32,000 nt of DNA from an uncultured Clostridia bacterium (GTDB taxonomy: Bacteria; Bacillota; Clostridia; TANB77; CAG-508), in assembly GCA_928721915.1 (NCBI GenBank), contig CAKMVZ010000007.1:3211-35210 (forward strand), in the 5' to 3' direction. The notes beneath the pieces were generated by a model that was not told where the DNA came from, did no database searches, and saw nothing but the letters and a program-made list of their open reading frames with translations. How positions within the stretch are numbered: position 1 is the first letter of the stretch; each line of letters starts with the position of its first letter. Positions 27,879 through 28,245 of the stretch are shown piece by piece. A program made the position numbers and the translations under genes.

Positions 27879-27907
27879 TTGACTTTTTTTTTAGTTATGA
27901 GTATACT
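27879..27907 (+). promoter_or_regulatory. strong promoter (TTGACT-17-TATACT) for a short convergent RNA
   Basis: TTGACT at 27879-27884, 17-nt spacer, TATACT at 27902-27907. Confidence 0.6.
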
Positions 27908-27913
27908 AATTAT

Positions 27914-28007
27914 AGATATATATTTGCCTAAAATCTTTAGCAATATATATATATAAATTCTAATGGACATGTTAAAAATCCCTGTGTGGCAGCACAGGGA
28001 TTTTTTT
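27914..28007 (+). ncRNA. candidate antitoxin sRNA of a type I toxin-antitoxin pair
   Basis: It would run from the promoter above to the shared terminator. It contains ATTCTAATGGACATG (27957-27971), which is complementary (15 bp including one G-U) to the toxin mRNA across its start codon. Confidence 0.45.
27974..28007. terminator. bidirectional rho-independent terminator shared by convergent toxin mRNA and sRNA
   Basis: A5-TCCCTGTG-TGGCAG-CACAGGGA-T7. Confidence 0.8.
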
Positions 28008-28009
28008 GG

Positions 28010-28099
28010 CTATTTATGTAGATACTCATTTATCTCGATAATAACCAAGATAATATCAACAATTAAGCCTATTATCTTTAGTATAATTCTAATGAACAT
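28010..28099 (-). CDS. 29-aa hydrophobic peptide, candidate type I toxin (Fst/Ldr-like architecture)
   Basis: Peptide is MFIRIILKIIGLIVDIILVIIEINEYLHK. Strong SD AGGAGG lies 9 nt upstream of the ATG (28099). The stop abuts the bidirectional terminator. An upstream CTCCTTT could sequester the SD. Confidence 0.55.
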   Translation of the reverse strand: MFIRIILKIIGLIVDIILVIIEINEYLHK

Positions 28100-28245
28100 G
28101 ACAGCTCACCTCCTTTCATAAATATTTCCTTTATGCAAAGGAGTTTTAGTATTATACTATATTGTTTATGTAGAAATTTGTCATAATCTGTCGAAAAATT
28201 AAATTTTTTTAAAATTTTTGTTTAAAAATTTAATTAACATAACTA

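Follow-up and report, generated by a model that had tools for sequence, protein, structure and literature searches.

What lies in the intergenic region upstream of thrS in this uncultured gut Clostridia bacterium, and does it belong to the Fst/par family of type I toxin-antitoxin modules, as a first-pass annotation of the DNA had proposed? Within the window (the whole 32,000-nt stretch of DNA that we analyzed), the thrS upstream region carries a cassette of about 330 bases, which combines the gene of a 29-residue membrane-type peptide with a convergent small RNA. By its sequence, the cassette has the appearance of a genuine type I toxin-antitoxin module on the plan of the Enterococcus par locus, a reading that we adopt because seven related cassettes keep the pairing at the start codon through matched changes. 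We consider it likely that the interval 27879-28184 is a self-contained cassette of this type. Its elements, in window coordinates, are as follows.

27879-27907, plus strand: predicted antitoxin promoter, TTGACT-17-TATACT (promoter scan, 10/12 matches)
27914-28007, plus strand: predicted antitoxin sRNA of about 94 nt, opening with an AU-rich hairpin (27916-27952), followed by a single-stranded anti-start-codon segment and closing with the terminator hairpin
27926-27940, plus strand: antitoxin copy of direct repeat DRb, GCCTAAAATCTTTAG, complementary to toxin codons 7-12 (repeat search; absent from the first-pass annotation)
27956-27971, plus strand: antitoxin copy of direct repeat DRa, AATTCTAATGGACATG, complementary to toxin mRNA positions -1 to +15 relative to the AUG (repeat search)
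27974-28007, bidirectional: intrinsic terminator with A5, a 9-bp G+C stem, a 6-nt loop and T7 (inverted-repeat search and folds)
27974-28148, minus strand: predicted toxin mRNA of about 175 nt, from the inferred start to the U5 tract past the terminator hairpin (ends placed from promoter and terminator only)
28010-28099, minus strand: 29-codon ORF, stop codon included, MFIRIILKIIGLIVDIILVIIEINEYLHK (translation; homologous peptides at seven other loci)
28067-28081, plus strand: toxin-gene copy of DRb, GCCTATTATCTTTAG (repeat search)
28085-28100, plus strand: toxin-gene copy of DRa, covering the start codon and codons 2-5 in plus-strand reading (repeat search)
28109-28114, minus strand: Shine-Dalgarno (SD) sequence AGGAGG, 9 nt 5' of the ATG (read from the sequence; GGAGG is invariant in 8/8 family members)
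28137-28143, minus strand: anti-SD CUCCUUU at the extreme 5' end of the toxin mRNA, pairing with AAAGGAG of the SD (sequence and fold)
28156-28184, minus strand: predicted toxin promoter, ATGACA-17-TATAGT (promoter scan, 10/12 matches; absent from the first-pass annotation)

On the minus strand, the strong SD with its 9-nt spacer and the 29-codon ORF that had been described were verified in the sequence (AGGAGG at 28114-28109, ORF at 28099-28010). The putative promoter upstream of them overlaps an alternative -10 element, TATAAT, at 28156-28151. In the fold predicted for the toxin mRNA (MFE of -56.2 kcal/mol), the SD is paired, and across the ensemble, the first four bases of GGAGG have an unpaired probability of at most 0.01. 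The predicted partner is the 5' CUCCUUU, whose capacity to pair with its own SD had already been pointed out; the element is indeed present, with its position shifted by one base to 28143-28137 on the minus strand. When the toxin mRNA was checked for a 5'-UH (an additional upstream helix shielding the extreme 5' end), its 5' end was predicted to form one arm of the SD-sequestering helix, and no second, distinct helix was predicted.

The terminator that bounds the ORF at 27974-28007 was recovered as first drawn, its hairpin being a perfect 13-bp inverted repeat (27974-27986 and 27993-28005) flanked by A5 and T7; as the A and T runs lengthen the stem, it escapes a simple terminator scanner. The plus-strand promoter was likewise found where it had been placed. 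The sRNA that would start from this promoter is predicted to fold with an MFE of -27.9 kcal/mol (z = -4.6), leaving bases 27953-27973 unpaired, and would overlap the toxin mRNA by about 34 nt at the 3' ends, via the common terminator. Among the Rfam type I antitoxin families, the window produced no match at the gathering score, and the hits overlapping the cassette within 27650-28850 were at chance level only (E >= 0.59).

Other readings of these elements were also considered. A leader peptide or attenuator was rejected, as the terminator immediately follows the ORF and no gene lies downstream on the minus strand, and a bacteriocin precursor was judged unlikely, as a leader is missing and so are genes for processing or transport. 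A 52-codon ORF on the plus strand (27963-28121) was rejected as well, since it lacks an SD and runs antisense to the conserved ORF.

The first-pass annotation had counted 15 pairs, one of them G-U, between the two RNAs over the start codon. We found 16: the DRa copies (27956-27971 and 28085-28100) are identical at 15/16 positions, giving 16 contiguous pairs over the AUG, including the one G-U, which becomes A-U in the same-species contigs L006 and L007 through a G to A change in the antitoxin copy. Since a second repeat, DRb, is present, the predicted sRNA pairing spans toxin codons 1-12, beyond these 15 bases, and the predicted duplex reaches toxin position +34. The computed duplex between the 5' part of the antitoxin and the toxin mRNA has an energy of -34.4 kcal/mol, compared to -20.7 +/- 3.4 for shuffles (reached by 0/500), and a 16-mer direct repeat with at most one mismatch arose in 1/300 dinucleotide shuffles of 27850-28200. 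The features of the cassette exceed chance expectation.

Homologues were sought by running a degenerate peptide pattern on DNA. A first genome-wide pattern, with Gly fixed at codon 11, gave no match because the homologues carry Ala at this codon; a relaxed pattern yielded L024, L029, L033 and L073, followed by L076, L084 and L085. The hosts of these seven cassettes are other uncultured gut Clostridia of very low GC (24-31% G+C across the family), and each cassette occupies a different chromosomal intergenic location, L024 and L029 being two copies at different loci in a single MAG. A peptide HMM run on six-frame ORFs of all fetched loci and of the window revealed no further copy in the vicinity of a cassette.

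All seven homologues keep the same order of parts, i.e., promoter, 5' anti-SD, GGAGG, an ORF of 26-29 codons, terminator, start-region copy and convergent TTGACA-17-TAxxxT, with the terminator directly after the stop codon and the start-region copy directly past the terminator U-tract. A promoter of the form TTGxxx-16/17-TATAAT/TATATT lies at the equivalent position in 7/7, 7 nt 5' of the anti-SD, and the distance from the convergent TTGACA-17-TAxxxT to the repeat is fixed in 7/7; convergent promoters for a toxin mRNA and an antitoxin sRNA are predicted at fixed positions at 8/8 loci. Pairing of the SD with the 5' end is predicted in silico (MFE and ensemble) for the window and four of the six homologues folded (all but L085) and partially for the other two, and the helices of the homologues use differing sequences (UCCUUUUU, CUCCUUUC, GCCU). 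The terminator hairpin, too, is kept with compensatory changes (CCCCGTGA/TCACGGGG, CCCAGTGA/TCACTGGG, CCCCGTAA/TTACGGGG). On the antitoxin side, the U-tract of the homologues is interrupted or imperfect (e.g., GGGGUACUUGCUAUUU), a composite of AGCAAG/CUUGCU and the hairpin stem being predicted instead, and the 3' ends of their sRNAs are therefore uncertain; a bidirectional terminator in the strict sense is shown for the window only, and the homologues share the hairpin.

The first-pass annotation had made its reading depend on the repeat pairing being conserved at homologous loci. It is: in a count of intermolecular pairs, 88% of cells were paired, and both sides had changed in 8/17 pairs. The start-region copy mirrors the synonymous codon choices of its own locus, such that L073 and L076, which share the N-terminus MLLKIIL and encode it with different codons (ATGTTACTCAAAATAATC vs ATGCTTTTAAAAATCATA), each carry a downstream copy matching their own gene. 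The covariation score was 0.468, compared to 0.153 for shuffles (reached by 0/500) and at most 0.145 for slid controls. Short gene conversion between the two repeat copies, as opposed to selection on pairing, could account for part of this signal. The alignment of the copies was anchored on the best match, a choice that favors pairing. In a matrix of all duplexes, the cognate antitoxin and start region were the best or tied-best combination for the divergent members (the window, L024, L076 and L084/L085), and among the close relatives L029, L073 and L033, several bound non-cognate start regions equally well or better.

As a negative control, we inspected 48 short ORFs matching the pattern, and a downstream start-region copy of at least 12 nt together with a convergent promoter occurred in the 4 family members only; in the 44 unrelated control loci, a convergent promoter was present in 0/44 and a TIR copy of at least 12 nt in 1/44. 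The par-type architecture originally proposed for the window, with its convergent promoters, common terminator hairpin, direct repeats over the start codon and self-sequestered SD, is borne out by these comparisons, as the seven homologous cassettes keep all of it and the intermolecular pairing covaries.

The peptide itself is a different matter. Its homologues at the seven other loci have 26-29 residues; M1, I5, L7, K8, V14, D15, I16, E22, I23 and E25 are invariant in the first five members aligned, and the three later metagenome members (L076, L084 and L085) differ at L7, V14 or E25. The peptide is under purifying selection, with a pN/pS of 0.18-0.64; between the window and the others, synonymous sites are saturated (pS of about 1). 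Its richness in Ile and Leu is partly expected at the genome G+C of 26%. Instead of the hydrophobic helix with a charged tail that had been claimed, helical analysis describes a full-length amphipathic helix whose charges (K4, K8, D15, E22, E25 and K29) form one stripe along its entire length, with a hydrophobic moment of 0.46, compared to 0.35 for TisB.

The assignment of the peptide to the Fst family found no support either. At E <= 10, five members had no match to Pfam PF13955 (Fst_toxin) or NCBIfam NF033608 (type_I_tox_Fst), nor did two more that were run against Pfam only, whereas the positive controls Fst and PepA1 matched both models with 22-58 bits (PepA1 reaching 58 bits on NF033608). 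In Fst and Lpt, mutagenesis identified as essential a Trp conserved after the TM helix and a PxxxG(C) motif inside it (PMC7472228). Trp occurs in 0/8 of the present peptides, the boundary position being occupied by Y26 in the window peptide and by N or D in its homologues, and the P/D/S/T-xxx-G(C) motif is missing too: D15 is followed by IILV, IIII or IIIL, and G11 of the window peptide is preceded by K8-I-I and replaced by Ala in the seven homologues. The TisB models PF13939 and TIGR04459 were matched by the TisB control and by none of the family peptides tested, and a PDB profile search with the peptide gave 0 matches. A phmmer search of 1.84 billion representative proteins, with the peptide extended by a Val to 30 aa as query, also gave 0 matches, as expected because such ORFs are seldom called and short queries cannot reach significance. 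A literature search on the core motifs of the peptide returned unrelated papers only. Judging by these comparisons, the peptide appears to fit none of the described toxin families, within an RNA layout that is already known from par (Fst/RNA II).

The par/Fst-RNA II layout is defined by convergent promoters, a common terminator, repeats at the translation start and a 5' structure that hides the SD (PMC7472228; PMC8594479). Like par of E. faecalis pAD1, parEF0409, S. mutans Fst-Sm/srSm and L. rhamnosus Lpt, the cassette has convergent promoters and a terminator hairpin common to both RNAs. In par-like loci, as here, DRa and DRb make the sRNA complementary to the toxin translation start beyond the 3' overlap, the SD is hidden by an intramolecular 5' structure, the toxin ORF has about 30 codons and is not overlapped by the sRNA (65-95 nt), and the pairing of the repeats persists from locus to locus despite poor conservation of their sequences (PMC7472228; PMC8594479). 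The cassette differs from par in its peptide, which has a charged stripe where Fst has a charged tail and is without the Fst HMM match, the Trp and PxxxG(C), and also in that a single 5'-end/SD helix appears to serve as both 5'-SL and 5'-UH. The window terminator loop, CUGCCA, contains no YUNR U-turn, the kissing-nucleation element, which is not present in all par homologues (PMC7472228), and the loops of L024 and L033 have CUGG. Finally, whereas the par hosts are Lactobacillales and Staphylococcus, those of the cassette are the low-GC gut Clostridia described above. The control of the cassette would thus work like that of par, yet its toxin peptide appears not to be Fst.

In SprA1/SprA1AS of Staphylococcus aureus, as in the cassette, the antitoxin overlaps the toxin mRNA at the 3' end only and acts via a separate start-region pairing; its toxin, PepA1, is a 30-aa membrane peptide of similar type, but belongs to the Fst family (NF033608), which the cassette peptide does not match. 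TisB of E. coli (tisB/istR-1) resembles the cassette peptide in having 29 residues and a single amphipathic helix with charges along one face, and the tisB toxin mRNA is inactive as first made, as proposed below for the cassette mRNA. There is no sequence homology with TisB (the TisB models being unmatched), and IstR-1 is divergent and located 5' of tisB, in a system that is SOS-controlled and Gram-negative. In modeled design, the peptide seems closer to TisB than to Fst. CD2517.1/RCd8 of Clostridioides difficile and its relatives are type I systems from clostridia as well and combine convergent transcription with small membrane toxins, but their toxins have 50-53 aa and a Lys-rich tail, their antitoxins use cis overlaps of at least 131 nt with no direct repeats, and they adjoin CRISPR arrays or prophages (PMC5961336), whereas the cassette sits between housekeeping genes.

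Could the locus nevertheless be a genuine Fst/Ldr member, i.e., a diverged par locus sharing a common ancestor with pAD1 par, whose peptide has drifted beyond recognition? Peptides of 29 aa diverge fast, which speaks for such descent. So does the RNA layout, by which par-like loci are defined (PMC7472228), as do the start-region pairing outside the 3' overlap, restricted to Fst/RNA II and SprA1 among the type I families of T1TAdb (PMC8594479), and the Fst-like toxins reported in Clostridiales (PMC7472228). The members tested, however, escape both models at E <= 10 where Fst and PepA1 do not, the essential Trp and PxxxG(C) are missing from 8/8 peptides, the charges line one helix face over the whole peptide with no disordered tail, and no Rfam antitoxin matches, which makes this descent improbable.

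The distribution of the cassette bears on whether it encodes a toxin. Its presence varies among close strains sharing 98-100% ThrS identity, and the gene tables of nine same-species contigs list the 29-codon ORF in none. In contig L009, an 89-nt deletion removes the antitoxin promoter and leaves the toxin gene intact; TTCACT-16-TATATT is a candidate substitute promoter, and read-through from an upstream gene on the same strand is possible. In this variant, the toxin may be tolerated, or it may be well silenced by its own 5' structure. In the collections searched, cassettes occupy core-genome intergenic sites, not plasmids or phages: blastn found nothing with the window cassette against plasmids or with the L073 cassette against plasmids and phages, and a peptide-pattern search of viral contigs found no family members. 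A tblastn search of plasmid and phage collections with the peptide found nothing, the query probably having been masked by the low-complexity filter.

The core-genome sites, together with the apparent tolerance of antitoxin promoter loss in L009, would suit an antisense-regulated small membrane protein that is not a toxin (e.g., one that modulates a membrane complex) and whose expression the sRNA would simply tune. Here, two layers of repression are predicted, SD sequestration by the 5' end and antisense pairing over the AUG from a consensus promoter, and this, together with the multiple copies per genome, strain-variable presence and differing insertion sites, is typical of type I toxins and unusual for accessory membrane subunits, which as a rule share operons with their partners; we therefore deem a non-toxin very unlikely. 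That a chance ORF and chance repeats without function arose in AT-rich intergenic DNA is effectively refuted, for while Ile/Leu/Lys-rich ORFs and promoter-like hexamers are common at 26% G+C (a promoter scan of the region gave 14 sites vs 11 expected), peptide, both promoters, SD, terminator and repeat are conserved at eight loci in different genomes and contexts, pN/pS is below 1, the pairing covaries, and neither shuffles nor control loci reproduce the features.

Returning to the type I toxin-antitoxin reading, we propose the following mechanism. The minus-strand mRNA of about 175 nt would encode the 29-residue amphipathic membrane peptide and be translationally silent as made, its extreme 5' end, CUCCUUU, pairing with the SD. 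The convergent plus-strand sRNA of about 94 nt would share the terminator hairpin, and thereby be fully complementary to the 3' end of the toxin mRNA, and the DRa and DRb it carries upstream of the hairpin would allow trans-like pairing from -1 to +34, over the AUG and codons 1-12. Ribosome loading would be blocked by this duplex, which would probably also serve as an RNase III substrate. Upon a drop in the sRNA and opening of the mRNA 5' structure, the peptide would be made, and its insertion into the membrane, with ensuing damage, would be expected.

As to origin, we tentatively suggest, as a possibility short of an even chance, that the peptide founds a type I toxin family not described before and confined to uncultured gut Clostridia of very low GC. 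Its par-like circuit would have arisen independently of Fst, via local duplication of the start region just past the terminator and then capture of a promoter, and its charged stripe would make the toxin a charge-zipper pore like TisB, in a host that is Gram-positive.

Small ORFs of this kind are essentially uncharted in uncultured gut Clostridia, and the cassette contributes a putative toxin peptide family beyond the reach of current profiles, along with a search recipe for further cassettes (short ORF, terminator, start-region copy and convergent promoter). The variation of the cassette at 98-100% ThrS identity makes it a marker of recent genome flux, and with its eight loci, the family offers a natural series in which covariation bears on toxin/antitoxin specificity, useful for the design of orthogonal RNA switches. 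The par regulatory design, with its common terminator, start-reaching repeats and self-silenced SD, would not be tied to Fst peptides. If the independent origin is true, it would represent a simple, repeatable route to a de novo antitoxin, in which co-evolution of the copies gives each paralogue a private antitoxin.

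The cassette upstream of thrS lies in DNA of low G+C content (25.8% across the window), and its parts and immediate neighbours are as follows (window positions):

27879-27907, plus strand: predicted antitoxin promoter, TTGACT-17-TATACT
27926-27940 and 28067-28081: direct repeat DRb (antitoxin and toxin gene copies), 13/15 identical
27956-27971 and 28085-28100: direct repeat DRa (antitoxin and toxin gene copies), 15/16 identical
27974-27986 and 27993-28005: hairpin, a perfect 13-bp inverted repeat beginning within two bases of the ORF stop codon
28099-28010, minus strand: ORF of 29 codons, product MFIRIILKIIGLIVDIILVIIEINEYLHK
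28114-28109, minus strand: SD AGGAGG, 9 nt 5' of the ORF start
28143-28137, minus strand: CTCCTTT element
28184-28156, minus strand: predicted toxin promoter, ATGACA-17-TATAGT
28288-28496: T-box leader (E = 9e-16; 73.6 bits, under the Rfam gathering score of 93)
28485-28516: T-box terminator
28801-30570: thrS, downstream of the T-box leader

The first-pass annotation had described a minus-strand ORF with a strong SD, a bidirectional terminator at its end, a convergent plus-strand promoter and a direct repeat, and all of these were found. It had overlooked DRb as well as the toxin promoter, which points away from that of the thrS leader; its proposed pairing of CTCCTTT with the SD is also predicted by folding, with coordinates one base off. 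The terminator hairpin (27974-28005) lies between A runs and T runs, making intrinsic termination possible in both directions; a simple terminator scan missed this hairpin because the runs are absorbed into its stem. An imperfect 23-nt direct repeat, 78% identical, brackets the entire cassette (27850-27872, ATTTGTCGAAAAATGTCGAAGAA; 28176-28198, ATTTGTCATAATCTGTCGAAAAA). In its right copy the repeat runs into the -35 hexamer of the toxin promoter; it may be a site for a regulator or a scar left by recombination.

Folding of the predicted 94-nt sRNA (z = -4.6) gives, in order, an AU-rich hairpin at the 5' end, 21 unpaired nt that include the anti-AUG sequence, and the hairpin of the terminator. 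Through both repeats, the 5' part of this sRNA is predicted to form a duplex with toxin mRNA positions -1 to +34 (-34.4 kcal/mol, compared to -20.7 ± 3.4 kcal/mol in dinucleotide shuffles; 0/500 as good), and 1 in 300 shuffles produced a 16-mer repeat as good as DRa. Folding of the predicted toxin mRNA pairs its 5'-terminal CUCCUUU with AAAGGAG at the SD, and the probability of being unpaired does not exceed 0.01 for any of the first four GGAGG bases.

Since the peptide is too short for protein searches, we scanned sequence collections with degenerate DNA patterns encoding M-h-h-(K/R)-h-h-h-(K/R)-h-h-x-h-h-h (h, any codon whose second base is T). In species-representative genomes 63 loci matched, 4 of which encode clear homologues: L024 (MFFKILLKVLAIVVDIIIIIMEIIENLNK) and L029 (MLLKILLKIIAIVVDIIILVMEIIENLHK), on two contigs of a single MAG, L073 (MLLKIILKIIAIIVDIIILISEIIENLHK) and L033 (MLLKIILKIIAIIVDIVILIIEIIED). 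A metagenome scan added L076, L084 and L085. All homologue contigs belong to uncultured Clostridia/Eubacteriales with 24-31% G+C, and the housekeeping surroundings of the cassette differ from locus to locus (among them a pur operon, a position beside a pseudouridine synthase gene, one after soj-spo0J and one near metG, all named from N-terminal sequences alone); no copy was found in the plasmids, phages or viral contigs of the collections searched. The homologous peptides share 52-66% identity with that of the window. The first five members aligned all have M1, I5, L7, K8, V14, D15, I16, E22, I23 and E25, and the three later metagenome members differ at L7, V14 or E25. The pN/pS of the ORF is 0.18-0.64, and between the window and the other members synonymous sites are saturated while pN is ~0.24; from this the ORF is taken to be translated and to evolve under purifying selection.

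The order of parts is identical in every locus: a sigma-70-type promoter ending ~7 nt ahead of an anti-SD sequence; a small hairpin, GGAGG and the ORF; a G+C hairpin with a U-tract straight after the stop codon; a copy of the toxin's start region abutting the U-tract; and, 45-60 nt beyond this copy, a convergent TTGACA-17-TAxxxT promoter. The first-pass annotation had made conservation of the repeat pairing in homologous loci a check on the module, and here it held, each predicted sRNA forming 12-19 contiguous pairs over the AUG. The pairing sequence varies by locus and follows the local gene (AUGUUCAUUAGAAU in the window, AUGUUCUUCAA in L024). L073 and L076 use different codons for one and the same MLLKIIL (AUGUUACUCAAAAU and AUGCUUUUAA, respectively), and there too the downstream copies match their own gene. 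In a cross-matrix of duplex energies, the cognate pair was best or tied-best for the divergent window, L024, L076 and L084/L085; for the closely related L029, L073 and L033, non-cognate start regions bound equally well or better.

Across the 17-pair intermolecular helix, 88% of cells are paired and both sides changed in 8/17 pairs. The covariation score was 0.468, versus 0.153 ± 0.036 in shuffles (0/500 reached it) and at most 0.145 in slid registers. Two cautions apply to this signal: the start-region copies were located by best match, although they always lie directly after the terminator, and short gene conversion between copies could contribute. Compensatory changes also occur in the terminator stem, in the seven homologues the anti-start loop and the hairpin lie inside a conserved AGCAAG/CUUGCU helix, and a 5'-end/SD helix is predicted in all homologues with differing sequences. 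Among 48 pattern-matching short ORFs examined as a control, only the four family members combined a downstream start-region copy (at least 12 nt) with a convergent promoter.

Regarding the peptide itself, the charged residues K/R4, K8, D15, E22, E25/N26 and K29 all fall within a 100-degree helical-wheel arc, with a hydrophobic moment of 0.46 and a mean hydrophobicity of 0.52-0.69. It is thus modelled as an amphipathic helix, positive in its N-terminal half and negative in its C-terminal half. This design resembles that of TisB (29 aa; moment, 0.35) more closely than that of Fst (moment, 0.10) and makes a membrane-active, oligomerising peptide likely. The cassette peptides tested matched neither PF13955 nor NF033608, with Fst, PepA1 and TisB controls matching their own models, and unlike Fst/Ldr peptides they have neither the conserved Trp nor the P/D/S/T-xxx-G(C) motif; the cassette matched no Rfam antitoxin family. 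Type I systems of C. difficile differ in toxin length (50-53 aa), cis overlap (at least 131 nt) and CRISPR or prophage context. Par-like loci are defined by convergent promoters, a bidirectional terminator, DRa/DRb and intramolecular structures concealing the SD and 5' end (Fst/Ldr review, PMC7472228), and the cassette shares this Fst/RNA II organisation in its predicted elements, with the 5' end itself forming one arm of the predicted SD-hiding helix. A 3'-overlapping sRNA acting outside the overlap is recorded only for Fst/RNA II and SprA1/SprA1as (T1TAdb, PMC8594479). Of the earlier Fst/par-like reading, the par layout stands, and membership in the Fst toxin family is wrong, or at least unproven.

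Judged by its ThrS relatives, the source is an uncultured member of the gut Clostridia. The cassette was present in nine same-species metagenome contigs (98-100% identical; ThrS 99-100%), with no variation in the ORF, SD or 5' UTR. Two of them (L006, L007) carry a G to A change at the sole G-U position of DRa, yielding a perfect duplex. In L009, a single low-coverage contig, an 89-nt deletion (~4100-4120, equivalent to window 27827-27915) takes out the antitoxin promoter; the toxin gene is intact, DRb carries a C to A change, and a weaker promoter-like TTCACT-16-TATATT upstream was created or retained as a substitute. The cassette is absent from the relatives L001, L011 and L012 (94-98% ThrS identity), where the gene order is holA, T-box, CYTH-domain gene, thrS, and it is thus a recent presence/absence polymorphism. 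The window's allele occurs in none of the representative genomes (185,579-species collection).

In the relatives L001, L011 and L012 a 187-aa CYTH-domain gene separates the T-box leader from thrS, where the window has ~270 nt of non-coding DNA (28529-28800), leaving the leader unusually distant from thrS. The window's ThrS (589 aa) is without the N-terminal TGS domain found in some relatives at 83% identity (639 aa; P0119, P0120). Relative to same-species L003 and L008, the window carries a 2.45-kb insertion (25394-27842; junction sharing ~14 nt) encoding two proteins, one of 157 aa that has a weak prepilin N-methylation motif (25479-25952) and one of 571 aa without a family match (25990-27705). 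A frameshift near 24780-24850 splits holA (DNA polymerase III delta, 24231-25236) into N-domain (24231-24791) and C-domain (24847-25236) ORFs. As the split recurs in L001, L003, L008, L011 and L012, independent assemblies of its own and related species, it is not one contig's sequencing error and may reflect programmed frameshifting or a gene that is genuinely split. In same-species contigs, uvrA is called as 581 + 374 aa (L003-L006, 7036-9863) and gpsA as 250 + 71 aa (L003, L008, 730-1720), both intact (941 and 329 aa) in L001, L002 and L011, which suggests gene decay or recoding in the window's lineage.

Taken together, the best-supported reading of these predicted elements is a type I toxin-antitoxin-type module. 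In it, translation of the toxin mRNA would be silenced from the outset, the 5' end concealing the SD. The convergent sRNA would be complementary to this mRNA at the common terminator and, via the repeats, would also cover the start codon and early codons, thereby blocking initiation and probably promoting cleavage of the duplex; loss of the sRNA and opening of the 5' helix would permit peptide synthesis. The original observation is confirmed and strengthened, and its interpretation was right on how the cassette is built and probably on how it works. A cassette of this kind is itself no surprise and is of specialist interest, for work on type I systems and on small proteins; what is new is the predicted par-type RNA control of a peptide family missed by current profiles, in uncultured gut Clostridia.
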